Positions 22,564 to 61,499 of a stretch of DNA of 61,843 nt are shown in pieces. Within the stretch, counting starts at the first letter, position 1, and each line of letters begins with the position of its first letter. The stretch comes from a virus (lineage: Duplodnaviria; Caudoviricetes): IMG/VR virus record IMGVR_UViG_3300048813_000081, positions 1 through 61,843 of that record; one strand, given 5' to 3'. The position numbers and the translations under genes are program-made. The notes under the pieces are model-generated. The model saw nothing but the letters and a program-made list of their open reading frames with translations. It ran no database searches and had not been told where the DNA came from.

Positions 22564-24236
22564 TAGTTACCTACATATTCGATTACTAGGACTAAACCGT
22601 TCTGACCGTTACCGCCTGCCTTGGCTACTGCGTTATCAAAACCTGCAGCACCACCACCTGAACCGATACCACCGCCTGGAGATACTGGAGAAGCAGATAA
22701 GAATCCACCTATTCCACCGCCGCCAAACATACTGGCTCCACCTGCAGGACCAACACCTACCGCATCTCCAGGTCCACATGCACCGGGAGAACCGAAGACA
22801 TTTAAATAAGGATAAGCCACTGCTGATATTGTAATAGTACCCATTAATGCTGCGCTCTGTAAGGCACCACCACCGCGTCCACCTTGAGGTGTAACATTGT
22901 CGGGTACTGATGATGGATACAAGCCGCCTTCTCCAGCGTAGCCAGTTAAACTTGTACTAATTTCAGTCGTTGAAAACTGAGAGTTATTGCCATTGACTCC
23001 GCTAGTATTAGCATTATCACCACTGGCATAACCACCAGCTCCGCCTGTACCTACGGTTACTGTAGCTGGGAACGTTAACCCGTTAGTAGGTAACAATGCT
23101 AAGGCTGTTCCACCGCCACCGCCTGCTCCACCTGTTTCACCCTGATCAGTTGCACCATTAGAACCGCTTCCCCCACCGCCACCGCCGCATACAGCAACTG
23201 CTATATATTTTGTTCCGGATGTAGGAGTATAACTACCAGATGTACTAAAAACTTTAGTATTAATCTGATGTGAACTTGGTATATTAGTTGATGTCCATAC
23301 TGCCGTACTGGTACTACCGGTTGTAGTGCAGAAATAGAAAGCATTATTAGTTACATCATAATAACTATCACAAACGCCATTACGATTAGCATTACCAGCT
23401 AGAACTCCATTAGGATTACCTGAACCTGTTCTGAAGGCTGTAACAGCTCCAATAACGTTACTGGCAAATAAGTTTGCCATAGGCAGTTCGCCTTGCACTT
23501 CTTGTGGAATAGGTCCGGAGGTGCCTAACTGAACTTTAGGTGCTTGTCCTACCGCTCCGCTATGATGCGAATTAAGCAGTCCAGCTAACACTGCTGATGG
23601 CGAACCGCCCGCTACGTTATCTGGATTTAAAATCTGGTCGGCTGATATAGTTGTTTGTCCCGCTTGAAGGTCTACGTAAGCCAAGGCGACACAACCAGCG
23701 CTTACTGTGGGGGCAACTTCGTCACCTGATGTTGCAGGCGTTCCTGGAACTAAACTGATTACTGCTACGGCGTTACGGACGGTGTCTTGAGCTACGCCTG
23801 AATTCGACGGCCCGTTGTATGGCACAGCTGGATTTGAAAGGTTTACATAAGGTAAAACCTGAGAATTAGAGTCGATTTGTTCAAAACCTGCCTGCACTAA
23901 AACGAATTGTGCTTGACCTGCTTCTAGGTCGTTACCTATCGAAATAGCTGTTTGTTGGTTGAATCCTAGCTGTAGAACTGAATTCGTGTCTGCCGATAAG
24001 CTGCCATACGCCGAAGCGTCTACTGGCTGCAGACTGGCTAGAAAACCATTAGTTATATTTAATGTAAGACTAGTAGGGTCTGTAGGTGAAAGGATTAAGT
24101 TTGATACGACGGTTTGGGTACTGCCTAGTACTACTTGTAGGCTATTAGCATCCCCTACTGTAGCGTCAACCCAGCCCCCTAGCATGTCTGCACTTAGAAT
24201 CTGCTGAAGCGAATATATGATGGGTCTACTTTGCAC
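22563..24236 (-). CDS. Tail fibre / baseplate-attached protein
   Basis: GGAG RBS with GTG start; N-terminal baseplate-anchor-like region; C-terminal FSTSGSYTP..GGGGGG Gly-rich fibre domain. Confidence 0.7.
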   Translation of the reverse strand: MQSRPIIYSLQQILSADMLGGWVDATVGDANSLQVVLGSTQTVVSNLILSPTDPTSLTLNITNGFLASLQPVDASAYGSLSADTNSVLQLGFNQQTAISIGNDLEAGQAQFVLVQAGFEQIDSNSQVLPYVNLSNPAVPYNGPSNSGVAQDTVRNAVAVISLVPGTPATSGDEVAPTVSAGCVALAYVDLQAGQTTISADQILNPDNVAGGSPSAVLAGLLNSHHSGAVGQAPKVQLGTSGPIPQEVQGELPMANLFASNVIGAVTAFRTGSGNPNGVLAGNANRNGVCDSYYDVTNNAFYFCTTTGSTSTAVWTSTNIPSSHQINTKVFSTSGSYTPTSGTKYIAVAVCGGGGGGSGSNGATDQGETGGAGGGGGTALALLPTNGLTFPATVTVGTGGAGGYASGDNANTSGVNGNNSQFSTTEISTSLTGYAGEGGLYPSSVPDNVTPQGGRGGGALQSAALMGTITISAVAYPYLNVFGSPGACGPGDAVGVGPAGGASMFGGGGIGGFLSASPVSPGGGIGSGGGAAGFDNAVAKAGGNGQNGLVLVIEYVGN

Positions 24237-24269
24237 TTGTGAATCTCCGTAAGATTAGTATATTTTACC

Positions 24270-26351
24270 TTATATAGCCTGATTAATATTATAAGAAACG
24301 ATAGCTATCTCACCTGAAGCATCGGGAGGGGCTGGTACGCTAAACGTTAAATGGCACTTATTATTAGTAGGATCTGGCAAACAACCGATTGTTGTAGCCC
24401 AATTTGCCATCACATAGGGAATATTCTGAGCATCGACTGTAATATCTACATCTAACGTTAAGACATTAGCACTGACAGATTGATAGAACGCTTGCCCGCT
24501 AACTGGTACTGCGAAGTAGTTCGCCTGAGTTCCGCTAGGAGCTGGCGTTGTGAAATTGTAGTTAATAGCATTAACCGAACGTCCTGAATAATAAGCCACA
24601 TTATTCCAAAGCCCTTGGAATAGAACTACATTATTAACTGCATCAGCTCTAACCTGATATCCTAAATCGCCACGATTGATACTAGCTATTCCGATGCCTG
24701 GTTGTGAATTTTCAATAGCCAAGAAGTTCAATATAGTCCCAGATGGTGTGGGGGCTTGCGTAGTCAAAGTGAATGTTATGGGCGAATTACCAGTCTGCCA
24801 AACATTAATCGGTTTACTTAACTGTGTAAATAGCAAATAAAAACCAGTGGAAGCTGGAAGATTTAAAGTGTAAGTTATGAGACCTGTAGCTATAGGATAA
24901 CTACCGCCAGTACTAAATGGAGCAATTAAACCTACAACATACTTAACCCAGATATCAGTTCCTAGAGCTGTGATTTGTGTTAACAGTTGATTAACTTGCC
25001 CTATGAGTGTTACCGATTCTTGTATTAAAGGAAAGAAATAACCAGTCTCAGAATCATATGCTGCCGCAAAGTCATAACCCCACAGGTTATAGGATAGTGC
25101 TACTTCTTGTGGTAATTGTATTTCAAAGTACCCAGTATATCTAGTAGTCCAGTCGCCCCACAAACTGGGTATCAGCGGACTGTCATAGTCATAATAACTG
25201 CCTTTATAACCACTGGTTTGATCAGCATAGTAGCCAGTATCGCTGGGATTCCAGCCTTCTAACGGTCTAACGGAAATTCCTGGATAGGCAGATTCTAGTG
25301 CATTAACTATAGCCTCTCTAGTAACCTGTGGTTGAAACAGAAGTGCCTGTATACGGATTCTGTAAGATGTATCTGATTCACCAGGTTGACGGGGTAAGTT
25401 ATTGCCGAAGTAATCCTGGGCGAATAAATCCAGAGCGCCGTTAGTAGCGGTCTGTAATCTACAAGCTGTCCAGGCGTAGTACATCTGCTGGGATATGAAA
25501 TTTAGTTCTGTACCGATTGATAAGAATATCGCATAGGCTATCCCTGATACACTGCGGGCATAATCTGACAACCAAGGATACGGAAACAGAAATATAAGTC
25601 TAGCGGCCCAGTCTTCAGGGCTAATGATGTTTACAATCCAAGGTTGCTGCACTGGAACAGTGGGGACTAGTGGTAGCGGAAATATACTTATATTAATAGG
25701 TATGCTGACTACTAGTGCCGATGTAGCAGTGAACGACGGTGCCCCGTTAGTAAATAGTAAACTGACCCGACTAGCTTCGATATCAGGAATCAGACCGATG
25801 GCTGTATTCCAGCTAGCTATACCGATAGGTAAATAAGTATCGCTGATCGTTGTAGAGATAGTCCACTCATATTCGCCTGGATCTACAGGTTGTTGATTAA
25901 TGAATGTATTCTGTCCAGGTCCGACGATTAAGTAACTGAAATCAGCTGTTTCACCAGGTGGTGAACTGAACAAAAATATCCAGGTATTGCCTGCTATCTG
26001 AAACCAGACTTGGGTGTTCCACTGACAGATCGGTACTACTGATTGCCCCGTAGGCGCTGTGACGGCATAGCTCAGTGTACCCGGTTCTAGCACTACAGTA
26101 GTTAAATCTTGCGCGCCGGCTGGTATAGCAATAACTGTAAGGGTCGCTCCGGCATCGACTGGACTGCCGAAACTAAAAGTAGCAACATTACCATCGGCTC
26201 CTGAGAGCCAGCAAGTCGTCGGCGTAGATACCTGCCCTGAGACGACGTAGTCGCTAACTGGGTTCGGTAAAGTAACATCGACAGACAGCGCTCCTGTGGC
26301 TAAGTTAACTATCTCTCCGGCGACATTGAGCGTAGGGATTAATACTGTCAT
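24270..26351 (-). CDS. Baseplate wedge protein with extra beta repeats
   Basis: LQTATNGALDLFAQDYFG..LPRQPGESDTSYRIRI motif of P2 gpI-like wedge proteins; follows baseplate J. Confidence 0.75.
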   Translation of the reverse strand: MTVLIPTLNVAGEIVNLATGALSVDVTLPNPVSDYVVSGQVSTPTTCWLSGADGNVATFSFGSPVDAGATLTVIAIPAGAQDLTTVVLEPGTLSYAVTAPTGQSVVPICQWNTQVWFQIAGNTWIFLFSSPPGETADFSYLIVGPGQNTFINQQPVDPGEYEWTISTTISDTYLPIGIASWNTAIGLIPDIEASRVSLLFTNGAPSFTATSALVVSIPINISIFPLPLVPTVPVQQPWIVNIISPEDWAARLIFLFPYPWLSDYARSVSGIAYAIFLSIGTELNFISQQMYYAWTACRLQTATNGALDLFAQDYFGNNLPRQPGESDTSYRIRIQALLFQPQVTREAIVNALESAYPGISVRPLEGWNPSDTGYYADQTSGYKGSYYDYDSPLIPSLWGDWTTRYTGYFEIQLPQEVALSYNLWGYDFAAAYDSETGYFFPLIQESVTLIGQVNQLLTQITALGTDIWVKYVVGLIAPFSTGGSYPIATGLITYTLNLPASTGFYLLFTQLSKPINVWQTGNSPITFTLTTQAPTPSGTILNFLAIENSQPGIGIASINRGDLGYQVRADAVNNVVLFQGLWNNVAYYSGRSVNAINYNFTTPAPSGTQANYFAVPVSGQAFYQSVSANVLTLDVDITVDAQNIPYVMANWATTIGCLPDPTNNKCHLTFSVPAPPDASGEIAIVSYNINQAI

Positions 26352-26430
26352 ACTAATCTCCAGTTAACTGTCCGGTAAGAAATTCGACTAAGTGCCATCA
26401 TGGGTAATACCAATACTCCCGAACGGTAAA

Positions 26431-27579
26431 TCATCCGCTATAAGACCCAACTAAAACTGTATTCACATTAGCCTGTACTACTTGAAACTGTCCTGGAGTG
26501 AAATCGGCAGGATAACCACCAATAGTGGTAGATAAGTTTTCTATTGATGTTATTAGACTAGAAGAGTTTTGCGCTACATCTATCAGCTGCGTTATGTATA
26601 GCTTAGCTCCCGTAGGTAACGAATTTACGTAACCGATGATGGCAGTCTGTACTACTGTTTGCACCTGGCTTAATACAGCGTTCGGCACTACAGCAATATT
26701 TAGATTTATATTAGGTGTCAGCGGGATAGCTGCGACTACTGATGCTTCGATAGTGAACGCCCTGACTGCTTGTACGGCAGCTAGTAGTATAGCTAGCTGG
26801 GGAGACGTTACTGTCTCTCCTGGGTTATTAGCTATAACTGTAAACCAGCCTGGTGTATTCACTCCTGATGGAGTCATGTTATTTAATACCGTATAAGTAA
26901 AATCTGGGAACGCCGTTTCGCAAGCTGCTAAAATTGCGAATAATGTAGCCTTAGAGAGCGACTGTATATACAGTTCGAATCGTGCCTTATAGTTAGCATC
27001 TGATTCCTGATCGGCACCATTAACTATAGGAGCTACATTAGTGACTGTAGTAAATCCATAAGACGAACTACCGAAGGTGACTAACTGTGCTACTTGTACA
27101 TTGCTAACAGAACCGGCTACTAAAGCTACTGCTGATGCCACTATAGATGTATGTCCGGTTTGCAGCACGTAAGCTTGCAGTCCTGCGTTATACGAACTAA
27201 GATTAGTATCAGGTACTAATTGATACTGAATATTAGCTCCAGTAGTTTGAATTATAGAACCAATAGGAATCGTTAACTGGCTGACCGCTGGTAGCGGAAT
27301 TGATAACGTTACTTGCCCTGAAGCGAACTGAGCACCATCTCTAGCGAAGTTAAACTGCATACAGAACGAATCAACGTCAGGTCCGAAACAAGTTTGTAGT
27401 CTAGCAAAGAATGTTGTTTGTTGCGCTTGGTATTGCAAGAACATGGCTGTATTAGCAGTAGCATCTGCGATGCCTTCAATCGGATCGCCTATGCCTAGAT
27501 TCGGTGTCACACCTGTCGCTTGCGCGAATGCTGCTATGAATTGCGTAATGAAATCGTCTTGGCTTTGGGTGTTTAACAT
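26431..27579 (-). CDS. Baseplate J-like protein
   Basis: A.GQVTLS..IPIGSII..AGSVSNV..VTNVAPIVNGADQESDANYKARF. Confidence 0.9.
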   Translation of the reverse strand: MLNTQSQDDFITQFIAAFAQATGVTPNLGIGDPIEGIADATANTAMFLQYQAQQTTFFARLQTCFGPDVDSFCMQFNFARDGAQFASGQVTLSIPLPAVSQLTIPIGSIIQTTGANIQYQLVPDTNLSSYNAGLQAYVLQTGHTSIVASAVALVAGSVSNVQVAQLVTFGSSSYGFTTVTNVAPIVNGADQESDANYKARFELYIQSLSKATLFAILAACETAFPDFTYTVLNNMTPSGVNTPGWFTVIANNPGETVTSPQLAILLAAVQAVRAFTIEASVVAAIPLTPNINLNIAVVPNAVLSQVQTVVQTAIIGYVNSLPTGAKLYITQLIDVAQNSSSLITSIENLSTTIGGYPADFTPGQFQVVQANVNTVLVGSYSG

Positions 27580-27998
27580 TAAGGGAGGCTCACATTTATA
27601 GATATCTGATTACCATTATTCGGCGTAATCACAACATTGACATTTATTTGTTGCGGATTACTGCCCTGAGTTACTGTGACTACTGGAGGCACTGAAGAGT
27701 TTCCAGTAATAGCTGATAACACTCCTTGGTAGACTTTTTGTTGCAGGATATTTATAAAACTAGATGTAAACGGCTGTCCCAACATAGCGTTAGCCGATAG
27801 ACCAAAATCTGGATGAAATATCCAGTCAGGAGTTTGTGGTACGCCGTTTATCAATGCAGCTGCATTGGTAAAGATAAACCGTTCAATATTCTGGATAATA
27901 GCATCCCACGAACCAGCCCAAGCCAGGCCGCCGTTACTGTTGAGGGCAAAATCTCCGGCTAATGGTAAATACAATTGTTGCTGCATAGGTCTCTCCAC
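27579..27998 (-). CDS. Baseplate gp25/W-like wedge initiator
   Basis: GDFALNSNGGL..DWIFHPDFGL; upstream of baseplate J. Confidence 0.75.
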   Translation of the reverse strand: MERPMQQQLYLPLAGDFALNSNGGLAWAGSWDAIIQNIERFIFTNAAALINGVPQTPDWIFHPDFGLSANAMLGQPFTSSFINILQQKVYQGVLSAITGNSSVPPVVTVTQGSNPQQINVNVVITPNNGNQISINVSLP

Positions 27999-28025
27999 TC
28001 TCTAGATAATTATAAGTGATTAATG

Positions 28026-28104
28026 TGGTATATTAAACAAACGGTTAGCCGTAAGGTTGACACAGGGGCGTCACTGAGTTAAATCGGGGGCGCTCCGTCC
28101 TTTT
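28026..28104 (+). ncRNA. Candidate small RNA (~65 nt) with its own extended -10 promoter and terminator-like end
   Basis: TG-G-TATATT at 28026-28034; ACGG-TTAG-CCGT hairpin; GGGGCG/CGCTCC stem followed by GTCCTTTT. Confidence 0.4.
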
Positions 28105-28108
28105 AATC

Positions 28109-28117
28109 TGTTATAAT
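28109..28117 (+). promoter_or_regulatory. Extended -10 promoter TGnTATAAT
   Basis: Perfect consensus pointing into the structured non-coding region. Confidence 0.65.
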
Positions 28118-28121
28118 AGAT

Positions 28122-28585
28122 AAACGGTCAGAGAGTTGCATTATTACTGGCTGAGATTTCGTAACGGTGGATGCTTATATCCGAAGAATTGGTAACGGGT
28201 GCAAACTGTGCCAATAGGGTATGAGAACTATCTAGGTTCATGAGCCAGATACGCCGTAAATCGCCCCCCGCCCCAGGAATTTGAAGACCTGAAGGGGGTT
28301 TACTACCACAATAGTAACCTGGAATGTACGTCGGCAAAACGTGCAGGATGGGTTGCGTACAGAAAACCCCCGGATCTCTCCAGGGGTCATATAGCTATCT
28401 ATATAAGGACACCTGCGTACAGGATATCTATTCGAAGAGGACTTATTAGATGGGCCTCTTTTCGCTAATTCTGCCACCGGGAAATCCCAGTGTATCAATC
28501 ACGACAGCAAAGTTATTCACTTATATGTCGCCTGCTGTACGATGTCAGAGACACCTCTGGACTACAACGCCCAGGCTCTTTCTTA
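28122..28585 (+). ncRNA. Candidate large structured ncRNA (~460 nt), family not recognised
   Basis: No credible ORF; about ten local hairpins plus long-range stems (CTGGCT/AGCCAG, CCTGG/CCAGG, 5' AGAGAG/3' CTCTTT); promoter directly upstream. Confidence 0.55.
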
Positions 28586-28609
28586 AGCTAATCGTACTAG
28601 GATATTATA

Positions 28610-28786
28610 TCAGGCAGCTGGTGAGCTGGGTACTACCGGTTTCGGATGTTTCTTAAATATACTTAATACTGAAGTACCAGCCTTTTTAAGGGCGCTTTCA
28701 GTGCCTTCGACTGCCAAACCGAAGGTAGCCGTTGCTAAAACAACCGGGACTATCGCTACTGTTAATAAACCTGCTACTGTTATCAT
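28610..28786 (-). CDS. Small membrane protein
   Basis: AAGGAG RBS before MITVAGLL; hydrophobic N-half. Confidence 0.5.
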   Translation of the reverse strand: MITVAGLLTVAIVPVVLATATFGLAVEGTESALKKAGTSVLSIFKKHPKPVVPSSPAA

Positions 28787-28796
28787 GTATTTCTCC

Positions 28797-29225
28797 TTAT
28801 GATGCGTTTGCATTTTGTTTCTTAATTGCTCTATTATACGTTCTGATTCTATGACAATTAGCACATACTAGTTCGCATTTAGCTAATTCGTTTGCTAATT
28901 TCTCACCCGTATAACCCGTAATAACCGCATTGGAAATTTCAAATCTTTTTATACCTCTAACATGATCGAAATCCATTACACATGAAGGGTAGGTTATACC
29001 GCAATCAATACAAGGTCGGTTTTTCATGTCTTGTAATTTTTTCTTTCGTTTGAACCGTTTAAGCCTTTCATATTCATTAATTTTGATCCGATTCCTGCGG
29101 CGCCATTGCGTATCAAGTTCTTTTTTGCATACTTTACAATAATACAATCGCCCATCCCTACTGCTTGTAGAATAAGTAAATTCAGTGAGCGATTTAGTAA
29201 TATTACATCTAATACAAATTTTCAT
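28797..29225 (-). CDS. HNH homing endonuclease
   Basis: MKICIRC..CKVC zinc finger; CIDCG..MDFDHVRG..KCELVCANCHRIRT. Confidence 0.9.
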   Translation of the reverse strand: MKICIRCNITKSLTEFTYSTSSRDGRLYYCKVCKKELDTQWRRRNRIKINEYERLKRFKRKKKLQDMKNRPCIDCGITYPSCVMDFDHVRGIKRFEISNAVITGYTGEKLANELAKCELVCANCHRIRTYNRAIKKQNANAS

Positions 29226-30295
29226 GATGCATTAGCATTTTTTGCTTCTTGATCGTCTGATACTTGTTGAACCATAGGACCTGATTCTCCAGAACCGGTT
29301 TGTACTCCAGAATGCGTATGTCCTTCCATCCATTGTGCGTACACATCAGTTAATAAGGCTTTCATAGTTCCGGTTCCCAAATTAACCGTATCTGATTTAA
29401 CATTAGTAGTATCTGAAGTAACGTTCACTACACCATCGGGGACGTTTAAGTTATAGGTATTGTTGTTACCGGTTATGTTAATCGTTAGTTCCGAATCGTT
29501 ACTAGCTATGTTTATAATGTAACGTCCATCACCCTGGGCACTATCTGCTGTAATGTTCAGAGTCTTAGCCGCAAGTCCCCGGGTTGTCGATAAAATAGTT
29601 TCATTAGTATTTGCGTTATTAGTCTGACCATCAGTTGCGATATTGTCTATATTCAAGTTAGCATTCACAGTATCCGGCTGGTCACCGTTTTTATTAGAGT
29701 TCGTTCCTACAGCTTGCACTCCTAAATTCATAGTCTGGGTTAAGTCTGATGGAGTTTGATTAGTTTGTACTACTGGAGCAGGATTCGTTAGACTAACTAA
29801 TTCAACTAAATTATCATTACTGAAATACAAGTAAGCACCGGTGCTATGTTTAAAGAGCCATTCGCCAGGAGCTGCCTTAACGTTAGATAAGTCCTGATAA
29901 CCCGTAGGTGGTACATCAACCTGATTAAACATCTGCACCGACTGTATGTACAGTCCACGTTTAGTTCCTAAGACATGTACTAGTACCTGCTCTGACAAAG
30001 GCACATTACCATTCTGACTATTTTTCTGAGCTAGCGGATCTGTGACTGTAGCTTGCCCGAAAGGCAGTAACTGTATACCGAATTGATTACCGGCTACTGG
30101 TGTGCCTAGTGGTATCCAACCGGATTCCATATAAGTAGTGTTGTCGTTAGTCCACGAAGGAATAACAACTTTAATTCTGTTTGTTGTCGGGTCAACGCCT
30201 GAGACTTGCCCTACTAAAGTAAAGACATTAGTGCCTGCAGCTTCACGGGCGTTCTGCAGGGCTAAGTGGTTGAATTCGATAAGGCCATCGATCAT
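29222..30295 (-). CDS. Baseplate spike (gpV/gp5-like)
   Basis: GQVSGVDP..RIKVVIP..ESGWIP OB-fold; beta-helix repeats; tip motif HTHSGVQTGSGESG. Confidence 0.85.
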   Translation of the reverse strand: MIDGLIEFNHLALQNAREAAGTNVFTLVGQVSGVDPTTNRIKVVIPSWTNDNTTYMESGWIPLGTPVAGNQFGIQLLPFGQATVTDPLAQKNSQNGNVPLSEQVLVHVLGTKRGLYIQSVQMFNQVDVPPTGYQDLSNVKAAPGEWLFKHSTGAYLYFSNDNLVELVSLTNPAPVVQTNQTPSDLTQTMNLGVQAVGTNSNKNGDQPDTVNANLNIDNIATDGQTNNANTNETILSTTRGLAAKTLNITADSAQGDGRYIINIASNDSELTINITGNNNTYNLNVPDGVVNVTSDTTNVKSDTVNLGTGTMKALLTDVYAQWMEGHTHSGVQTGSGESGPMVQQVSDDQEAKNANAS

Positions 30296-30753
30296 ACTAT
30301 CTGCTCCGAATACGCGGGGTTGAACGGTATCGCCATGAACGTACTGCCATCTTTATTGGTTTTACGTTCTAACCTAACCTCACCAAAATTAATACTAACA
30401 CTTAACGCCTGCAAGTCAATCAGGTATCCAGCAGCTAATGTATTCTTATCCATAGCGAAGGCATAGAATAAGAAATCAGGTCCGGTAGTTGTATTTAATA
30501 GTTTTTCGTATTCAGATGGACCGGCTCCACTAGATGTTCTAAGCGTAAAGTCCTTAAAATTACTATAAGTTATCTGCCTAATACGCACTGCGAACTTTAA
30601 TGTTGGAACGACTAAATCGATACCTAACTCAGTATCTTGCTTAAAATTAGCTTCGGCTATGAACTTACGTCCAAGGGCAGCCTTGACAGCAGACATATGT
30701 CCATCGGACCATGAGCGCCGGGTTTGGTATCCTGCGGTGTTGAGGTTAGGCAT
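30292..30753 (-). CDS. Hypothetical protein, possible PD-(D/E)XK-like fold
   Basis: QDTELGIDLVV..AVRIR..FTLR..SEYEKL..DFLFYAF. Confidence 0.45.
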   Translation of the reverse strand: MPNLNTAGYQTRRSWSDGHMSAVKAALGRKFIAEANFKQDTELGIDLVVPTLKFAVRIRQITYSNFKDFTLRTSSGAGPSEYEKLLNTTTGPDFLFYAFAMDKNTLAAGYLIDLQALSVSINFGEVRLERKTNKDGSTFMAIPFNPAYSEQIV

Positions 30754-31093
30754 CCAGAATAACCTCACAAGGCTTACCTGATTTTTTAGCCATATCAATA
30801 GTTATTTTAGTACCTTTTGATGTGCCATCCCAAAATGCTACGATTCGATCGGCTGTTTCTACTATCTGTCTGTTTCGCATAGCACCTGCTGATTTGCCAT
30901 ATTTATACCAATTCGGTCGAAAGATTATGCTTTCTATCGAACAATTGTTTGCTATTAGTTCTGCTGCTGCATCTACTCCAAAAGCACCACCGCTAACTAA
31001 TATGTCACCAGGTTTAAACCATGTCCTAATATAGTCGGCTACTAAATCTAGTGCTTGAAAATATCTACTACCTACTATAGCTATTTTACTCAT
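30746..31093 (-). CDS. SLOG family protein (YspA/DUF2493-like)
   Basis: KIAIVGSR..LVSGGAFGVD..W.KYGKSAGAMRNRQIV..VAFWDGTSKGTKITI. Confidence 0.85.
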   Translation of the reverse strand: MSKIAIVGSRYFQALDLVADYIRTWFKPGDILVSGGAFGVDAAAELIANNCSIESIIFRPNWYKYGKSAGAMRNRQIVETADRIVAFWDGTSKGTKITIDMAKKSGKPCEVILDA

Positions 31094-31095
31094 AA

Positions 31096-31407
31096 CTAAA
31101 ACTCCCATCCATTGCCATGTTTTTGATATAAACCGTTATGGCAAACACATTTGCAGGTAGCAGTAATGGTAGTACGCATAAAACCGTCTTCAGTTCGTTT
31201 TGTTTCTTCTTTCGTACCGCAAGCCGTGATATGGCAAGCAGGATAAGAGCACTTGCCTTTGCATTTTGCTATACGTTTTTTCTTATCAGAGTGTAAGCAT
31301 TTACTGCATAAATCTGGTAATTCAGATAAATCCCATAATGATTTCTCCATGCCCTGATGACATTCCAGACACGGAACCGTTTTAGTGGTGAGCATTAAGC
31401 CTATCAT
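31096..31407 (-). CDS. Cys-rich hypothetical protein
   Basis: Multiple CxxC/CxC motifs; coupled ORF. Confidence 0.45.
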   Translation of the reverse strand: MIGLMLTTKTVPCLECHQGMEKSLWDLSELPDLCSKCLHSDKKKRIAKCKGKCSYPACHITACGTKEETKRTEDGFMRTTITATCKCVCHNGLYQKHGNGWEF

Positions 31408-31718
31408 TCAGACTCCATCCACGTGATCGTATACTCTGGCACTACGCCCGCAACAGCACCATGTCTTACTATTAGACCGTTATCAACTCCACCCTCAATA
31501 TAGAAGCTACCAGTAAACACGCTAGGCATAGCCCATACATGTCGACCATCACCATCAGCTACGGTTATATGCCCACCGTTTTTATGCACTTCGATCGCTG
31601 AAATTTTTATATTCTTAGCTGATGATAAGCGGAAAGTACCATTCTCTTCCGGCTGGTAGGAGAATCGTTTGCCGTTGGCTATTACTGGTGTGTCTATGGC
31701 GGTGCTAGGGTGGATCAT
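31404..31718 (-). CDS. Hypothetical beta-rich protein (paralogue of 41710..42072)
   Basis: Shared C-terminal pattern G.F..(E/D)GG.D.GL...(T/V)W.E. Confidence 0.5.
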   Translation of the reverse strand: MIHPSTAIDTPVIANGKRFSYQPEENGTFRLSSAKNIKISAIEVHKNGGHITVADGDGRHVWAMPSVFTGSFYIEGGVDNGLIVRHGAVAGVVPEYTITWMESE

Positions 31719-31764
31719 GCTAATCCACCTAAACCCGTTCCGCAGTATATTATGGTTATCATAT

Positions 31765-32223
31765 TTACGCCAGTCTAAAGAACTCCTGTGCCGACAGTCT
31801 ATCTAAAAAATCAGATAACTGTCCAGTTAATATCCCGTATTTGTGATTAATAATTCGTAAGCATTCTAAAGCACCTCCAAGATTTAGGTTTTTAGGCATG
31901 TTGAATTTGAAACAGTCGATAACTTCAGTAACGGCTAATACTTCGGATGCGGGGATAAGTAAGGATTTCACTAACTTACCGGTTAATATATCCAGAGTAT
32001 CTATAAGTAGTGGCTCCTTCTGTGCTGCTGCAGACTCAAACCACATACTGTCGTATGAACCGGATTTAAGCTTCTGCTTCTGTATGACATCTATCTCATA
32101 AAGATTCAGTGTATCTGGGGGAGTATTTTGATAGTAATGATATAGTTCGCCCTCTGTAGTTCCTAGAATAACTGCAGATGATGGTAAGGATAATGTCACA
32201 TGGAATAGGAGGGATGATTGCAT
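31765..32223 (-). CDS. Hypothetical protein
   Basis: 152 aa ORF co-oriented with neighbours. Confidence 0.45.
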   Translation of the reverse strand: MQSSLLFHVTLSLPSSAVILGTTEGELYHYYQNTPPDTLNLYEIDVIQKQKLKSGSYDSMWFESAAAQKEPLLIDTLDILTGKLVKSLLIPASEVLAVTEVIDCFKFNMPKNLNLGGALECLRIINHKYGILTGQLSDFLDRLSAQEFFRLA

Positions 32224-32244
32224 CCATACAGTGTACTCTGTGGA

Positions 32245-32439
32245 TTAATTTTTGTAAAGCATTTCCGCTGCTTGCCTAAATACTGAATTAGTATATTTTA
32301 ATGTCATAGATAAACCTTCTAGAGTTTTAGTCTTTTCAGCAGGAGGCAGTAGTTCAGATAAATCTGCATAAAAAATCATAACAGCTTCGTTGAACGTAGC
32401 AAAGATTTCTTGTAGTCGGGTGTAGGTTTCACTCTGCAT
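32245..32439 (-). CDS. Hypothetical protein
   Basis: Overlaps the stop of the upstream ORF. Confidence 0.45.
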   Translation of the reverse strand: MQSETYTRLQEIFATFNEAVMIFYADLSELLPPAEKTKTLEGLSMTLKYTNSVFRQAAEMLYKN

Positions 32440-32737
32440 AATCAGCCTGCTTCAAAAACCGGCAATCAATAAACGGTTTGCCAACAGTGAAATCACCCAT
32501 GCCTTGCTTGAAGGCATTGGCTTCCACAGCTTTGCGTTCGGTAGGGTTGTTCCACTTAAAACTGCTACGTCCTGGTTGACAAGTCACGCGATACTCAGGC
32601 GTATTCACGGCCGTGCCGGGTTTCATGTGTTCTAGGAGTGCTACGTTGACTGTATCGATTTCTGTTTGTATGCTCTTGGATTCTAATTTTAATCTAGCTA
32701 ATTTATCTGCTAAGACTTCGACTGTTATTGTTTGCAT
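32429..32737 (-). CDS. Hypothetical protein
   Basis: GAGGT RBS; coiled-coil N-terminus. Confidence 0.55.
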   Translation of the reverse strand: MQTITVEVLADKLARLKLESKSIQTEIDTVNVALLEHMKPGTAVNTPEYRVTCQPGRSSFKWNNPTERKAVEANAFKQGMGDFTVGKPFIDCRFLKQADYAE

Positions 32738-32790
32738 TAGTAATACCTCATCTGATATCAGTAATATACCGTGAGTAGAAACTAATGTGA

Positions 32791-34086
32791 CTATTTATTT
32801 AATAATGATTTACAGAACTTAACAATACGATTCTGGAGCTTCGGCTTTAAAACATTCAACAGTCGTGTCCCGTCCGGAACCCCCAAGCCAGTACAACAAT
32901 CGTAACCAGTGGTAGCAGAATAGGCACCATTATTACCAGAGGTAACATCAAAAAACACTCCTGGATTTGCATACATTACATCCTTTAAATTACTCACCGG
33001 TTTATCTAGATTACTATTTAATAAAGCATTCAGTCCAGCCATCAATGGTGCTACAGCTGAAGTACCGCCTATTACCGATTGCTGTCCATCGACATCAACT
33101 ATATATCCGCTACTAGGGTCGGCGTTGCCGGCTATGTCGGGGACTTTACGACCGGATGTTGATACGCCGCCGCCGGTAGCACCTTCATTAGATAGCCACT
33201 CAGTCCATACGGTCTCCGATTTACGACTACCATCACTATTAAGAATAAGTTTCGTGCCGCCACAGGCTATCGAATAAGGCGAACTAGCAGGGAAGTCAAC
33301 GTGGTTACCAGTTTCTCCATCACTAGAGCCATTATCACCCGCAGCGACAAATACATTAATACCAGCATCAGTACAACTCTTGATAGCATTATTCATAGCC
33401 TCTTGTGCACCTGAATCCCATTGATCTTCTGGAGCACCCCAGCTATCGGAGATGCAGTTCGGTTTCTTAAAGTATGTAGCTATGTTAGAAATAGCATTAA
33501 TATAGCCATTTGTAGTATTCGGAGCAAATACTATTAGAATCTGCACTCCAGGAGCTACCGCTGCTACAACGCAAATATCTAGGGAGACCTCACCATCGGC
33601 ACCATCTGCTCCATCGGAGACGTTAGCTCCTGTAGAAAAATTATGTTGCCACATGCGTGGGTAGGCTACACCCATCGATTTACAGTAGTTCAAAACGTTA
33701 GTCGGGTTAAATCCACCGCCCAATTCTATAATGGCTACGACTTGATCTTTAATAGCTGCTGTCGGTTTAGGGAAATTATAAGCCTTGGCGACTTGCAAGG
33801 GGGTGAGAGGTGATGCCGAAGGACCGAAAAGACCACGGGTCAGATGATGTGTGGGCCGTTTATACAACCCCTCACCATGCTTATCCGACAAAATACATAG
33901 GATGTGATGACCGAATAGTTTTTTCAGGTGTGTTATGATCCCAGGATTCGAAGCTTCAAACCTGATAACTCTGTGTTCATGAAATAATGCCGCTGTTAGC
34001 TTCTTCATGCGTAGATACTTAACTATATCCAAATGAAAGCCAAGACCTGAATCTGATACGGGGCGTAGGTGGATTGAATATTTCAT
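32791..34086 (-). CDS. Sedolisin/kumamolisin-like peptidase (S53)
   Basis: IIELGGG, GEVSLDI (Glu/Asp), SWG, AAGDNGS, DFPASSPY, VPDIAGNADP, GGTSAVAP (Ser), DVTSGNNG..GYD.CTGLG. Confidence 0.92.
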   Translation of the reverse strand: MKYSIHLRPVSDSGLGFHLDIVKYLRMKKLTAALFHEHRVIRFEASNPGIITHLKKLFGHHILCILSDKHGEGLYKRPTHHLTRGLFGPSASPLTPLQVAKAYNFPKPTAAIKDQVVAIIELGGGFNPTNVLNYCKSMGVAYPRMWQHNFSTGANVSDGADGADGEVSLDICVVAAVAPGVQILIVFAPNTTNGYINAISNIATYFKKPNCISDSWGAPEDQWDSGAQEAMNNAIKSCTDAGINVFVAAGDNGSSDGETGNHVDFPASSPYSIACGGTKLILNSDGSRKSETVWTEWLSNEGATGGGVSTSGRKVPDIAGNADPSSGYIVDVDGQQSVIGGTSAVAPLMAGLNALLNSNLDKPVSNLKDVMYANPGVFFDVTSGNNGAYSATTGYDCCTGLGVPDGTRLLNVLKPKLQNRIVKFCKSLLNK

Positions 34087-34331: not shown

Positions 34332-34763
34332 ATGAGAGTAACTGATTTAGCATGGGCAGCAGGAATTATTGATGGCGAAGGTTGTATACACATTAGCCGT
34401 GTTAAAGCTAGTGTGTGCAATCAAAGACAATCAGATCGCTATTCGCTTATGCTGAAATTAACTATGACACATAAAGAAACTATCGATAAATTTTATACTA
34501 TATTGCCGGGAGCTACGATACAAACAGGACAAAGACCAAACCGCAAACGAACATATACCCTGAATTACAGAATTACAAAAGCAATAGCGGCAATCAGACT
34601 CCTGTTACCCTATTTAGTCACCAAGAAAAAAGAAGCAAAATTAGCATTAAGATATGGCAATGTGCCTGCATGGCCAAGTCGATCTGGTAAGCGTCCTGCA
34701 AGTTTAACTCAATTGCGTCATACTTATTATTTATTAATGCGTAGGTATAAACATGAAAGTTAA
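34332..34763 (+). CDS. LAGLIDADG homing endonuclease (single motif)
   Basis: DLAWAAGIIDGEGCI; LLLPYLVTKKKEAKL. Confidence 0.9.
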   Translation: MRVTDLAWAAGIIDGEGCIHISRVKASVCNQRQSDRYSLMLKLTMTHKETIDKFYTILPGATIQTGQRPNRKRTYTLNYRITKAIAAIRLLLPYLVTKKKEAKLALRYGNVPAWPSRSGKRPASLTQLRHTYYLLMRRYKHES

Positions 34764-35559
34764 ATTGTTTGGAGATGTAACTCCTGTTGATTGGGCGGCC
34801 CTCAATATTCGCATGCCATTCGCTCCGATGCATGAGTTGGCAGAGAAGTATGAATTAACTGAAGTTAAGAAAAGCTACATACCTGCGCTAGAAAATAATG
34901 TTGATGATTTAGGTCATATTTTCGAAACCGATATCAATGTTTTAGATGGTAGGGAATTATTTAAACGTGTTAAATATCGTGCTAATAATACAGTCGCTGC
35001 TCTAGATCGCTGTACCCCCGACACTATCTGCATTAACCTCAACGGCGGCTATCACCACGCCGGAAAATACCCCAATACGGGATATGCGTATAGTTTAATT
35101 AACGATCACATTTGGGCTACTGACTATCAGCTAGAACGATATAACAATATCAGAATAGGCATCTGGGATAATGATTTTCACTATGCTGGTGGGACTATTG
35201 AATACTATAAGGATAGTTCACAGGTTGATGTATTTTCTGAACACGCTCCGCTTAGAGGCGTTTTATATAAACATCAACACTTAAGACAAGAGGGATTGGG
35301 CTGTTATATGTTTGACTTGAATACAGTCGATAAAGTTTTACTAAATCTAGGAACGGATTATTCTACAGAAGACGAATTATTCGGACAATATGCCTGGTAC
35401 GATCGCAGCTGGGTAATGGCTTTCTGGAAGAATACTATTATGCATGTTCTAGAACATAGAACACCTCTAGCTATAACTTTCGGCGGGAGTTATGGAGATA
35501 AGGGGATTAGTATGTACAAAGAAATTATTACTTTTTGCCAGGAATTGCCAGGACTCTAA
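34753..35559 (+). CDS. Zn-dependent deacetylase (HDAC/AcuC family)
   Basis: GGYHHAG; IND; IWDNDFHYAGGT (DxDxHxxxGT); LGTD; GGSY. Confidence 0.75.
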   Translation: MKVKLFGDVTPVDWAALNIRMPFAPMHELAEKYELTEVKKSYIPALENNVDDLGHIFETDINVLDGRELFKRVKYRANNTVAALDRCTPDTICINLNGGYHHAGKYPNTGYAYSLINDHIWATDYQLERYNNIRIGIWDNDFHYAGGTIEYYKDSSQVDVFSEHAPLRGVLYKHQHLRQEGLGCYMFDLNTVDKVLLNLGTDYSTEDELFGQYAWYDRSWVMAFWKNTIMHVLEHRTPLAITFGGSYGDKGISMYKEIITFCQELPGL

Positions 35560-36064: not shown

Positions 36065-36919
36065 TTATACCTTAACAATTCGTAGTGCCTGCAAGATATC
36101 TTCGAATCTGCATCCCCTGTGGCAGAATAAGACGTTTTTATCGGTATTAACGCACAAGTTATTACAGGATCTGTCGAAGCCTTTGGAGGCGCAACAGGGA
36201 CACTGTCCTATTAGTTCGCCACTGCCTGATTCCTTGAACTCCCAATGTGAAGGAAATTCCGCCAAAAGGGGTGTTTTAGGTTTATTCTGTAACCGTCGTG
36301 AACGTTTTTCCACTAAAGCCGGCAGATTAGAGGCTATTGTAACTACTAAATCACCAGAATTGGGGGACTGTTGAAGAAACCAATCTAGCTGGTCATCGTC
36401 GGGACAGTCTAAGAATAACCCGCGCTGACCTGTTTTCTTGTGAACACCTAACGGTAAGCGTACTAGATTACCTAATTGTTCTGGTTTTATAGATGTTTGT
36501 TTAGGAAACGATTCTGCCTTTAGCCCTGCAAGCATGCATGCATATATTCCCATTCGATGTACCAACGCTGTAGCAACCGGTCTATCGAATAAGAGCCATA
36601 CGTGTCCCATACGACCGGGGCGTACCGATTCGCGTAAATAAACCAAATTATTAATATTAAGGTAGTGCAGAAGCCTATTAAATTCTGTTGTTTGGTGGTC
36701 ATCGTCGATATCTATGCATAAAAATTTGCTGGTATTGTTTGCTGGGCTGGTAGTGTAAATGCCTAAAGTTTGTTTCCCCGTGAAATGATCTTCTAATAGT
36801 GAATTCGTAATCGACTGTCTGATAGCTAGATAAGAGCCATTGGTTTGCTGTAGCCCGTGGGCGTTCGGGTTACTTTGAAACCTCTCCAGGAACTGCCTCT
36901 CTCTGCCTATCACGCTCAC
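36065..36919 (-). CDS. AEP-superfamily primase-like protein with C-terminal Zn finger
   Basis: HFTGKQTLGIY..FLCIDIDD..GHVWLLF..ESFPKQ..GNLVRLPLG; CPCC..CHRGC. Confidence 0.75.
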   Translation of the reverse strand: MSVIGRERQFLERFQSNPNAHGLQQTNGSYLAIRQSITNSLLEDHFTGKQTLGIYTTSPANNTSKFLCIDIDDDHQTTEFNRLLHYLNINNLVYLRESVRPGRMGHVWLLFDRPVATALVHRMGIYACMLAGLKAESFPKQTSIKPEQLGNLVRLPLGVHKKTGQRGLFLDCPDDDQLDWFLQQSPNSGDLVVTIASNLPALVEKRSRRLQNKPKTPLLAEFPSHWEFKESGSGELIGQCPCCASKGFDRSCNNLCVNTDKNVLFCHRGCRFEDILQALRIVKV

Positions 36920-38928: not shown

Positions 38929-39786
38929 ATGAGAGCATTAATTCTTCCCGGCGGGGGAGCTAGGGGAATTCTACAAACCGGTATGTACGCTGCTTACCTA
39001 GAACAGTACAAAACGTACGATTTTATATGCGGTACTTCTGTAGGTTCTTTAAATGCGATTTTTATAGCCCAGAATGAAATGTTTAAGATGCTAGAGTTGT
39101 GGAGGCATATTAACAACTGCGATGTATTTACATGGAACCTACTTAACGCATTCGGACCGAAGGGCAGTCTGATGGATATAACGCCTTTAGCTGCTTTAAT
39201 TCACCAAACCTTAGATATCAATAAATTAAAACAATCAGGCAAGCCATTCTACGCCTCTACGACCCGGATTAACCCATTAGCCGCTGTCACTAAGAATATC
39301 TGCAATATGACCCAGGAGGAAGCTGAAAAGTGGGTCTTAGCATCAGCTAGCGCACCCATGGCATTCCCGGTACAAGTAATCAACGGCAAACAGTACTCAG
39401 ATGGTGGATTAACCAGGAATTTCGGCATATCTCATGCTATAGCACTGGGTGCTACTGATATCGTCGTTCTATGCTGTGGTGCTATGAATTCCTCTGATGT
39501 TAAAAACCTATTCGATATGATTAAGTTGCAATTATCTGTGCAGTCCGCAGCACAATTTACCGATGAAACCGAACTGGCTCAAATATTAAATAAATCTCAA
39601 CATACGGTATCGCTGACGGTATACAAGCCAGACAGCATAGATTTGAAACAATTGGACTTTACTGGAGCCAGTAGAAACTATAAGAAATATTACGAACAGG
39701 GTTATAATATTATGAACAAACCAGCTTTACAGTTTCGTAAGGTTGCTCAAACAGGTATGCAACCCCGCTGGCAGGTATTTCATTAA
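38929..39786 (+). CDS. Patatin-like phospholipase
   Basis: GGGARG, GTSVG (catalytic Ser), ASASAP, DGG (catalytic Asp). Confidence 0.92.
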   Translation: MRALILPGGGARGILQTGMYAAYLEQYKTYDFICGTSVGSLNAIFIAQNEMFKMLELWRHINNCDVFTWNLLNAFGPKGSLMDITPLAALIHQTLDINKLKQSGKPFYASTTRINPLAAVTKNICNMTQEEAEKWVLASASAPMAFPVQVINGKQYSDGGLTRNFGISHAIALGATDIVVLCCGAMNSSDVKNLFDMIKLQLSVQSAAQFTDETELAQILNKSQHTVSLTVYKPDSIDLKQLDFTGASRNYKKYYEQGYNIMNKPALQFRKVAQTGMQPRWQVFH

Positions 39787-44571: not shown

Positions 44572-44683
44572 GTTTGTACCCCCTTAATTTATTAGCAGCT
44601 AGTAGTGTTAATAAACGACCGAATTCATCCTTCCGAAATAAACCGCCTAGAGGTACGGTGAATGCGCGATTAATTATGAGCAT
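44564..44683 (-). pseudogene. Diverged duplicate 3' end of gene 45377..45574
   Basis: RAFTVPLGGLFRKDEFGRLLTLLAANKLRGYKRG aligns without gaps (18/34 identical) to that gene's C-terminus. Confidence 0.7.
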
Positions 44684-45380
44684 ATGCTCTCTTGGGTCTA
44701 GAAGCTGCTTCAATTGGATTCCATCCTCTACGAATTCTGTCTCTGCATATTTTATTGGTTACTATATTAAACAATTTTACTAATTGAGTCAAATTATATG
44801 AATTATTATTGTGGTCAAACAATCGTTTACAGTGAGAGTAGCCTTCCTGTTTTCTTTGAATCCAATCTTTAGAGTTGCCTTTAGCGATAGCTGATTTATG
44901 TGCTTGGGATAATTGGCGACCGGTAAATAATTGAGATAGTTGTAGTTTTTGCGTATCGCTCATTTTGCGACCCTTATGAGCTTTAGATATTTTTAATTTA
45001 GATTCTAAGGTATGAGCATATCCTGGACGACCTTTATTTATAAGAGATAATTTACGTTTCGTTTCTTCCGATCGTTTAACACCCCTAGGGCTCCCGGCAG
45101 TAAAACTAATATTAAAATCGATGGTACGATTTAATACGTTATCTAAATACCACTGCTCTCTTGTAATACAGTCTTCAGGTAAGCATTCTTCTAATACTTC
45201 AAATCTGAATTGATCAGCACCGTACTTGTTCCAAGAACGTTGTAATAAAATATTCCAATGTTTATTCGCATTTAAGCTTGCCTTATGTGCTCTCCATCGT
45301 TGTTTTAAATTAGTCGCACTACTGCCTATGTAGCATTTATTATTAACTAAATTTGTAATTTTATAAATACCAGTACTCAT
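44670..45380 (-). CDS. GIY-YIG homing endonuclease with NUMOD3 repeats
   Basis: GIYKITN..YIGSS..RW..H; RSEETKRKLS and HTLESKLKISKAHKG repeats. Confidence 0.92.
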   Translation of the reverse strand: MSTGIYKITNLVNNKCYIGSSATNLKQRWRAHKASLNANKHWNILLQRSWNKYGADQFRFEVLEECLPEDCITREQWYLDNVLNRTIDFNISFTAGSPRGVKRSEETKRKLSLINKGRPGYAHTLESKLKISKAHKGRKMSDTQKLQLSQLFTGRQLSQAHKSAIAKGNSKDWIQRKQEGYSHCKRLFDHNNNSYNLTQLVKLFNIVTNKICRDRIRRGWNPIEAASRPKRAYAHN

Positions 45381-51948: not shown

Positions 51949-52579
51949 TTTAGCAGGACAAACATTCGGTCGATATACCGTTATCGAACGTGCTCATTTG
52001 GATAAATCAAGAGAACGGCACTGGTTATGTAGATGTGAATGCGGTACTATAACGTCCTCACCTTCTACATCATGCCTGAAAAGTGGACAAGCTAAATCCT
52101 GCGGTTGCTTGCACAAAGAAATTGTAGCTGATCAAATGCGTATTCGGGCTAGAACGCATGGATTATCCAAACATCCAATTCATAAATTATGGTTTAAGAT
52201 TAAAGAACGTTGTTATAATCCGAATTGCCAATCATATCCTATTTATGGTGGACGGGGTATTGCTATGTGTCAAGAGTGGTTGGATAATTTCCAAACATTC
52301 TACGATTGGGCTACTAATAATGGCTATAAACGCGGTTTGCAGATTGATCGCTTCCCCGATCAGAGTGGTAATTACGAACCGGGCAACTGTAGATTTGTTA
52401 CCAGCAAGGAGAATAACCGTAATCGGCGGGATAATGTTTATTTAGATTATCAAGGAAAGAGGTATTCTTTACCAGAATTTATAGAACTATTTGGTGCTGT
52501 TAAAGCTGACTGCGCTAGATTACGTATCCGACGTGGATGGAATCCATTACAAGCTTGTTTGGAGCCTAATCGTAGATGA
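51923..52579 (+). CDS. HNH-type homing endonuclease (paralogue of 49908..50393)
   Basis: DLAGQTFGRYTV..WLCRCECG..SCGC..HGLSKHP..YGGRGI..LQIDR..GNYEPGNCRF. Confidence 0.9.
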   Translation: MSRPHQGPDLAGQTFGRYTVIERAHLDKSRERHWLCRCECGTITSSPSTSCLKSGQAKSCGCLHKEIVADQMRIRARTHGLSKHPIHKLWFKIKERCYNPNCQSYPIYGGRGIAMCQEWLDNFQTFYDWATNNGYKRGLQIDRFPDQSGNYEPGNCRFVTSKENNRNRRDNVYLDYQGKRYSLPEFIELFGAVKADCARLRIRRGWNPLQACLEPNRR

Positions 52580-61438: not shown

Positions 61439-61499
61439 TGCCTTGTCCTCCGTGCCTTAGTAATACTATATTAGCAAGAACTCAGGCGCTTGCATATGT

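Follow-up and report, generated by a model that had tools for sequence, protein, structure and literature searches.

The sequence analysed here, hereafter the window, is a virus record of 61,843 nucleotides (nt) from IMG/VR (IMGVR_UViG_3300048813_000081; completeness estimate 85%) and belongs to a tailed phage that encodes a major head protein, a large terminase (phrog_38; expectation value, E, 1.3e-105), a helicase and a primase. Its minus-strand baseplate genes are interrupted by a gap without a credible open reading frame (ORF), which a reading of the bare sequence (the original prediction) had assigned to one large structured RNA of about 460 nt plus a small companion RNA. Our comparisons with related phages, folding tests and RNA-library contigs indicate that the gap probably contains two convergent structured small RNA genes, RNA1 on the plus strand and RNA2 on the minus strand, of which RNA1 would be a real, expressed RNA; this degree of confidence covers the architecture, and the mechanism that we infer from it lies outside. 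In the order of the minus strand, the locus comprises the following features.

29222–30295, minus strand: hub/spike-like gene, with weak matches to Phage_base_V and Apex in Pfam
28797–29225, minus strand: HNH endonuclease gene (phrog_2255, E 1.3e-30)
28610–28786, minus strand: small membrane-protein ORF of 58 amino acids (aa), with its ATG at 28786 behind a good Shine-Dalgarno sequence and a single membrane helix at the N terminus, directly upstream of RNA2
27999–28609: ORF-free gap, between the membrane ORF and the gp25-like gene
27579–27986, minus strand: gp25-like gene, the next one after the gap
26431–27579, minus strand: baseplate J gene (Pfam, E 8.8e-20)

The gap and its relatives

A search with the baseplate J protein retrieved 24 proteins of 53–86% identity, mostly from Logan assemblies, and scanning IMG/VR with the baseplate J alignment yielded 153 relatives, of which 80 were kept. 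Six of these are close (L002 to L007, 52–75% identity); the contigs of five reach the junction between the hub and gp25 genes, and all five have an ORF-free gap there (480 nt in L005, 437 nt in L004, 439 nt in L003, 248 nt in L002 and 136 nt in L006). The gap is absent, with the hub and gp25 genes abutting, from the 13 more distant loci that were tabulated and from a further contig, L106. Over 153 nt, the DNA of the gap is 79% identical to that of L005, whereas identity in the coding flanks is 66–67%.

Other searches added little to this set. Among GenBank phages there was no match to the gap in distant mode nor to positions 24000–33000 in near mode, and a scan of viral contigs with the single gp25-like protein confirmed no relative. 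The gp25-like alignment retrieved two loci from metagenomes, presumably the same sequences as L004 and L002; the baseplate J alignment found eight loci in species genomes, all with 38% identity or less; and the hub alignment recovered from viral contigs only those already known and L106. Finally, two motif scans of viral contigs returned seven and four stretches, which were known relatives, chance matches in coding DNA and one look-alike terminator hairpin.

The absence of a credible ORF, as originally claimed, is borne out by these comparisons: the gap holds three ORFs of 68–86 aa, none of which matched a Pfam family, and no ORF is kept at this position in the relatives. Substitutions show no 3-nt periodicity (mismatches by codon position are 16, 12 and 21 in RNA1, and 16, 15 and 15 in RNA2), and the runs of insertions and deletions are mostly not multiples of three (1, 1, 2, 2 and 8 nt within RNA1). 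By these sequence measures, the region is non-coding. The adjoining 58-aa membrane ORF had no match in Pfam, PHROG or the ESM Atlas; homologues of 50–60 aa are present in L003, L004 and L005, and absent from L002 and L006. Additionally, the HNH gene occurs between the hub gene and the membrane ORF only in the window, and not in L003 or L005.

Two probable structured RNAs on opposite strands

The original prediction described a single ornate non-coding RNA of about 460 nt, read from the plus strand (28124–28590) in nearly continuous base-pairing and with its 5′ and 3′ ends closed on each other, plus a companion of 65 nt. Many local hairpins do appear in the plus-strand fold, the promoter and the plus-strand start are well supported (see below), and the hairpin at 28264–28298 is followed in the window only by TTT, which makes read-through conceivable. 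As a whole, however, the 471-nt stretch is no more stable than its shuffles on the plus strand (-140.8 kcal/mol, z -1.39, 9 of 100 shuffles as good), so that the single RNA fails the shuffle-based folding test proposed with it, and the minus strand gives practically the same values (-140.7 kcal/mol, z -1.52). Likewise, the three long-range helices that would hold the molecule together are each broken at 2–6 of their 5–6 pairs in every relative examined: AGAGAG/CTCTTT at 3, 2 and 3 of six pairs in L005, L004 and L003, respectively; CCTGG/CCAGG at 4, 2 and 2 of five pairs in the same loci; and CTGGCT/AGCCAG at four of six pairs in L005, being absent from L004 and L003.

We then folded separately, on both strands and in every locus, the left part of the gap (28124–28310 in the window, and its counterparts) and the right part (28311–28597). 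The left part was more stable on the plus strand in all six loci (plus versus minus, in kcal/mol: window, -56.3/-39.3; L005, -54.8/-35.8; L004, -56.4/-44.3; L003, -60.3/-49.4; L002, -77.4/-53.1; L006, -26.3/-24.7), with z-scores in L002 of -4.2 and -0.8 for the plus and minus strands. Conversely, the right part was more stable on the minus strand in the four loci that have it (in the window, -94.7 kcal/mol, z -3.3, versus -84.4 on the plus strand), and its G-U pairs would be A-C mismatches on the plus strand. Folding of the alignments gave the same preference, with -36.0 for RNA1 against -8.15 for its reverse complement, and -54.0 against -39.7 for RNA2; the GC skew also flips, from +0.18 to -0.09, at about 28300. 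Most of the local hairpins listed originally are found in minimum-energy folds, but from about 28310 rightwards they are minus-strand structures.

Further observations speak against one long molecule. The right half has a conserved -10 box of its own at a fixed spacing; the plus-strand hairpin at 28264–28298 is followed by a clear T-run in L002, L003, L004 and L005 (weak in the window and in L006); and a deep RNA-library contig ends in adapter at 28255, short of 28590. GOLLD and ROOL, to which the single RNA had been likened, are single RNAs of several hundred nucleotides. They share with this locus the phage or prophage location and the lack of an ORF, but here the halves prefer opposite strands and would form two RNAs of about 180 and 240 nt, without a match to GOLLD or ROOL at E up to 10. 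A single large RNA therefore seems to us highly improbable, and the change from one giant RNA to two small convergent ones illustrates that hairpin-rich gaps need checking on both strands.

RNA1 occupies the left part of the gap, with the following elements.

28109–28117, plus strand: extended -10 promoter TGTTATAAT (hexamer 28112–28117), with a predicted start at about 28124 after a 6-nt spacer
28124–28301, plus strand: predicted primary transcript of about 180 nt, comprising a 5′ hairpin, a three-way-junction core and a terminator
28125–28153, plus strand: 5′ hairpin, from the predicted fold
28155–28262, plus strand: three-way-junction core, present in the window and in L005
28155–28159/28258–28262 plus 28164–28169/28252–28257, plus strand: P1
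28174–28182/28217–28225, plus strand: P2, with an apical hairpin
28229–28238/28243–28251, plus strand: P3
28264–28298, plus strand: GC-rich terminator hairpin, followed by TTT at 28299–28301

A TGn-extended -10 box precedes RNA1 or its counterpart in six of six loci (the window and L002 to L006), always on the strand opposite to the baseplate genes, and an RNA hairpin starts 6–7 nt past the box in these six loci as well as in the companion unit. The second promoter and start of the original prediction are thus well founded, and a very abundant RNA-library contig begins slightly downstream of them. Of the 48 pairs predicted for RNA1, 12 differ between the window and L005, five of them by changes at both positions and seven by a one-sided change through G-U; none is broken, whereas slid controls pair only 36–43% of the cells. 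Within P2, five of the nine pairs changed in a G-U-compatible way, which on the minus strand amounts to A-C mismatches. As an independent small RNA gene, RNA1 has a promoter, a 5′ end at a fixed distance from it, a terminator and a discrete transcript, for which we infer the ends and the strand. The RNA1-core covariance model misses the plus-strand RNAs of L002, L003, L004 and L006, which we therefore call positional analogues of RNA1.

RNA2 lies in the right part and is separated from RNA1 by a spacer that varies among relatives.

28604–28612, minus strand: extended -10 box TGATATAAT (hexamer TATAAT, 28609–28604), overlapping the stop codon of the membrane ORF, with a predicted start at the G at 28597
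28360–28597, minus strand: RNA2, with a minimum extent of about 238 nt, delimited by the strand-specific fold, covariation and promoter spacing
28597–28536, minus strand: 5′ domain, with three hairpins closed by GUAC/GUAC and a variable hairpin next to it
28463–28459/28364–28360, minus strand: helix closing the 3′ domain, with three hairpins inside, including 28387–28366
28302–28359: variable spacer between the two RNA genes, whose sequence and length change from relative to relative (L005, about 45 nt; L004, about 10 nt)

The hexamer TATAAT, which adjoins the membrane ORF's stop codon or overlaps it, is followed after exactly 6 nt by GTACGAT in the four loci that have RNA2 (the window, L003, L004 and L005); it is TGn-extended in the window. 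Among the window, L005 and L004, RNA2 has 53 predicted pairs with 14 both-sided changes and 97.5% of the cells paired, a level reached by none of 500 shuffles, while slid controls gave 0–3 both-sided pairs. The covariance model of the 5′ domain found only its four training loci, with the next best match at E 0.39 (84 sources, 721,522 bases). As a candidate independent gene, RNA2 has a -10 box at a spacing of 6 nt in four of four loci, but no clean terminator follows its 3′ domain. The hairpin 28387–28366 was considered as its terminator and rejected, since the U-rich tail is paired in helix 6; for this reason RNA2 may extend to the RNA1 terminator hairpin (28298–28264 on this strand), which probably stops transcription from both sides.

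Between L003 and L004 there is hardly any difference in the membrane ORF or the plus-strand RNA, and their gp25-like proteins share about 95% identity; L003 keeps the 5′ domain of RNA2, but its 3′ domain has been swapped for unrelated hairpins (L003 1300–1400 versus L004 360–460). This mosaic exchange suggests, as far as the sequences go, a modular turnover of RNA parts. The look-alike hairpin mentioned above, from an unrelated, AT-rich viral contig of 82 kb (L084, 955–990), is near-identical to the RNA2 hairpin 28366–28387 and has an identical loop; it sits in an intergenic space of 120 nt, with a T-run after it on the gene strand, and resembles an intrinsic terminator. The loop motif may thus recur in terminators of other phages.

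To the left of RNA1 there is a second, shorter plus-strand unit.

28026–28034, plus strand: extended -10 box TGGTATATT of the companion unit, in the first copy of a direct repeat; only in the window
28041 to about 28105–28107, plus strand: companion small RNA of about 65 nt, with two hairpins, the second being the terminator (stem 28085–28097, then TCCTTTTAAT)

Its box and that of RNA1, both correctly predicted, are each followed after 6 nt by ACGGT and lie within a 29-nt direct repeat (28020–28048 and 28103–28131, 79% identical), which takes in the promoter together with the initial bases of the RNA. The hairpin said to end the first unit was also found, as the terminator-like stem and tail listed above. 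Only the plus strand of the unit gives a good fold (-28.3 kcal/mol, with z between -3.4 and -3.5 and none of 200 shuffles as good); the minus strand stays at the level of chance (-12.8 kcal/mol, z 0.0), and no homologue was found in the relatives. The companion is a plausible, putative small RNA gene, although it is restricted to the window, where it duplicates the promoter and start of RNA1 and has a terminator of its own.

The pattern TGNTATAAT occurs four times in the window, whereas 6.5 sites are expected by chance, and two of the sites bracket the gap, facing inward. The other two, at 2141–2149 and 52211–52219 on the plus strand, both read TGTTATAAT, the same as the RNA1 promoter, and could point to additional strong promoters or genes for small RNAs.

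RNA-library contigs from peat

Parts of the region 27000–30000 occur in 23 sequencing runs, two of which are RNA libraries (X4 and X12); we examined these two and the DNA runs X2 and X3, all labelled as peat metagenome. In X4, three contigs are 100% identical to the window over 28135/28137–28255 (119–121 nt) and would correspond to the plus strand by the orientation of the adapters.

28137–28255: X4 record 18, depth 5565.6, running from 28255 straight into adapter
28135 and 28137 (left ends): X4 records 17 and 19, with adapter immediately before these positions and depths of 963.6 and 179

The flanking contigs from the same run have depths of 13.7 (27000–27977, baseplate J and gp25) and 3.1 (28892–29044, HNH gene). 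As DNA would be equimolar, a 400-fold difference within one replicon is not explained by carried-over DNA. The string behind 28255 is, we assume, the Illumina adapter next to the primer of the first mates. If so, these mates come from reading the minus strand, and with most stranded protocols the RNA itself would be of the plus strand, in agreement with the folding evidence. RNA1 thus appears to be a discrete RNA, very abundant in the one RNA run that shows it. The X12 contigs cover 28346–28550 and 28558–28731. No weight attaches to the holes between contigs (28010–28110 and 28256–28891 in X4, and RNA1 in X12). The DNA runs X2 and X3 had no variants inside the gap and, in consequence, added no covariation.

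Several observations weigh against the reading of the gap as two RNA genes. The expression of RNA1 is known from assembled contigs of one run; contigs are no proof of the ends, strand or level of an RNA, and which strand is assigned varies with the type of library. Copies of a few short inserts produced by the polymerase chain reaction could inflate the depth in X4, though there are at least two different left ends, and an identical gene on another replicon could contribute to it. Additionally, the X4 contigs end 11–13 nt inside the predicted start (28124) and 46 nt short of the end of the terminator (28301), which means that the RNA is processed to a core of about 120 nt or that its ends are lost during library preparation. 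On the side of structure, the shuffle control of RNA1 is weak with two sequences (15 of 500 shuffles as good), and the z-scores are modest for the RNA1 core (window, -1.8; L005, -0.5) and for the 5′ domain of RNA2 (-1.8). The RNA1 core has a single close homologue, in L005, and its covariance model finds only the window and L005 (two of 84 sources, 721,522 bases); with only two to four homologues, the structures of RNA1 and RNA2 are provisional. Lastly, the X12 contig 28558–28731 bridges the predicted start of RNA2 at 28597, so that RNA2 may be, at least in part, a 3′ untranslated region (UTR) of the mRNA of the membrane ORF.

A rival explanation is a gap without any functional RNA product, in which regulatory DNA (divergent and convergent promoters and a bidirectional terminator) divides the late operon and transcripts arise only as by-products. 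The promoter-like and terminator-like elements are indeed the best-conserved landmarks, the RNA1-like sequences lack detectable homology across the whole clade, and the thermodynamic z-scores are modest. Nevertheless, regulatory DNA would need neither 180–240 nt conserved above the level of the flanking genes, nor strand-specific G-U-compatible substitutions, nor the 14 compensatory pairs of RNA2, and a by-product some 400-fold above the contigs of neighbouring mRNAs would be unexpected; we consider this explanation decidedly unlikely. For a candidate first picked from the bare sequence, it is unusual to gain three independent supports: the gap is conserved above the level of coding DNA, its changes are compensatory in a strand-specific manner, and an environmental RNA library contains a very deep contig bounded by adapter. 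Exact coordinates are now at hand for Northern blots, rapid amplification of cDNA ends and pull-down.

Possible roles and known systems

In the arrangement that we propose, this tailed peat phage would have acquired an island of RNA genes, by insertion, in the interval from the hub/spike gene to the gp25-like gene. RNA1 would be read antisense to the baseplate genes, from the extended -10 promoter at 28109–28117 to its intrinsic terminator, and RNA2 would be read towards that terminator from the -10 box over the stop codon of the membrane ORF, with a start at about 28597, as either a second structured RNA or a 3′ UTR. A third promoter is predicted at the left border of the gap.

28009–28036, minus strand: predicted promoter of the gp25-like/baseplate J operon, with a -35 box TTAATA, a spacer of 16 nt and a -10 box TATAAT (28014–28009), matching the consensus at 10 of 12 positions

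This promoter lies back-to-back with the divergent plus-strand promoters, and a TATAAT-like box is also found directly before the Shine-Dalgarno sequence of the gp25-like gene in L002, L003 and L004. The distance from the -10 box of the gp25 operon is 14 nt to the box of the companion unit in the window, and about 12–23 nt to the RNA1 box in L002, L004 and L006. Given the size of the RNA polymerase footprint, promoters this close should exclude each other; a polymerase at one should thus keep the other free, and the synthesis of RNA1 and the expression of the baseplate genes would be inversely coupled.

As for RNA1 itself, we tentatively suggest, with some reserve, that it acts in trans as a stable folded RNA, either binding a protein or serving as a decoy. 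A classic seed-pairing small RNA does not fit well, because the conserved bases are nearly all paired or at the junction, and because no target better than chance was found: elsewhere in the window, the longest exact match, to the most conserved stretch of RNA1, is of 13 nt (61633–61645, E 0.13), lies in the repeat-rich end region and was judged to be due to chance.

Another reading is a cis-antisense control of read-through: transcripts begun on the hub side, or else at the RNA2 promoter, would cross the gap into the gp25 and J genes, and RNA1, perfectly complementary to the leader so formed, would trigger cleavage or termination and so set the ratio of hub to wedge proteins. This would provide one role for the plus-strand RNA gene in all six loci; in L002 and L006 the gene is immediately flanked by the hub stop codon and the gp25 promoter, and read-through of the hairpin 28298–28264, which has a weak T-run on the minus strand, is plausible. 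The leader, however, would exist only through the insertion of the RNA genes, since distant relatives have no spacer; RNA1 has a conserved three-way junction and evolves with its G-U pairing preserved, as expected of a functional RNA that folds and not of mere complementarity; and no read-through transcript was observed. We regard such a control as unlikely.

Convergent type I toxin-antitoxin loci, such as par/fst with RNA I and RNA II, txpA-ratA and bsrG-SR4, offer another comparison. They share with the gap a small membrane-peptide gene, a structured region after it and a convergent small RNA that ends at a shared hairpin. By analogy, the 58-aa peptide would be the toxin, RNA2 the long 3′ UTR of its mRNA and RNA1 an abundant antisense antitoxin, with a terminator in common. 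In keeping with this, the small hydrophobic ORF adjoins the convergent RNAs, one X12 contig joins the 3′ part of the ORF to the 5′ domain of RNA2, the putative antitoxin is in large excess, and the two RNAs face each other across one hairpin (inverted repeat I9). Unlike in type I loci, the predicted transcripts abut, without overlap or extended complementarity unless there is read-through, and the plus-strand RNA gene is kept without the membrane ORF in two of the six loci (L002 and L006). Moreover, the best duplexes between RNA1 and the membrane-ORF mRNA were no better than those with shuffled RNA1 in four of four loci (in the window, -29.9 versus a shuffled mean of -33.4), and the peptide matches no toxin family; a module of this type is very unlikely.

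Returning to RNA1 as a folded RNA acting in trans, its nearest counterparts by general properties are RNA C and RNA D of T4, stable small RNAs of a lytic phage, 120–140 nt long and with an unknown role, which are encoded in a tRNA cluster. Like them, RNA1 is phage-encoded, of about 120–180 nt, highly structured, abundant and with a promoter of its own; unlike them, it lies in a baseplate module, is antisense and has a convergent partner, and there is no relation by sequence or Rfam. The pRNA of phi29-type phages, with a functional form of about 120 nt, a three-way junction and high abundance during infection, is similar in these three respects. It differs in that the window encodes a classical large terminase and a baseplate of contractile-tail type, and there was no match in Rfam, which presumably includes a pRNA model; nothing points to a role in packaging.

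Comparison of the whole window with the 4227 families of Rfam 15 gave no match at the gathering score, tRNA, tmRNA, RNase P and group I and II introns included, and ARAGORN detected no tRNA or tmRNA, in accordance with the original prediction. With E up to 10, the region 27500–29400 matched only InvR (17.3 bits versus a gathering score of 60, E 5.3). The apparent novelty of the locus therefore stands as far as Rfam is concerned, with RNA1 and RNA2 apparently resembling no catalogued RNA family. A search of the full-text literature found no description of an RNA at the hub–gp25 gap. From the same source, the intergenic regions of IMG/VR, 8,495 candidate structured RNAs have been predicted and catalogued (PMC10690425). 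They are conserved structures of 29–151 nt, some in overlapping pairs on opposite strands, and the catalogue may contain parts of RNA1 or RNA2.

Phage small RNAs are a known kind of molecule, to which RNA1 and RNA2 would add two that, by sequence, match no Rfam family; to our knowledge, few have been characterised, and almost none from uncultured soil phages. A bolder reading, which we hold to be doubtful, is that RNA1 founds a new class of very abundant three-way-junction phage RNAs, produced while bacteria of peat soil are infected, and, together with RNA2 and the divergent baseplate promoter, forms an undescribed RNA-centred switch of the late operon; RNA1 would then be a folded protein-binding or decoy RNA that might, for example, take over a host factor or block a defence. 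If RNA1 really is about 400-fold above the neighbouring late mRNAs, it would be among the main products that this phage makes in its habitat, and knowing what it does would help to explain how infection proceeds in the microbial communities of peat.

The remainder of the window offers some minor observations. It also encodes an amidase and has a weak RecT-family match, slightly under the Pfam cut-off, and no integrase was found among the 20 window ORFs scanned. Two more genes of homing-endonuclease type, GIY-YIG plus NUMOD3 and HNH_3, are at 44670–45380 (minus strand) and 54092–54631 (plus strand). Three further genes form an accessory set that is unusual and possibly linked to conflict with host defences.

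34753–35559, plus strand: histone-deacetylase-domain protein (Pfam, E 2.2e-10)
36065–36919, minus strand: AEP-TOTE primase-domain protein (E 2.3e-23)
38929–39786, plus strand: patatin-like phospholipase (E 2.6e-25)

Finally, the end of the window (61480–61843) has no credible ORF and carries several copies of an iteron-like repeat of about 25–30 nt (around 61505–61530, 61545–61565 and 61605–61632), with simple CA/TG-rich sequence after them; it may be a replication origin or a terminal region.

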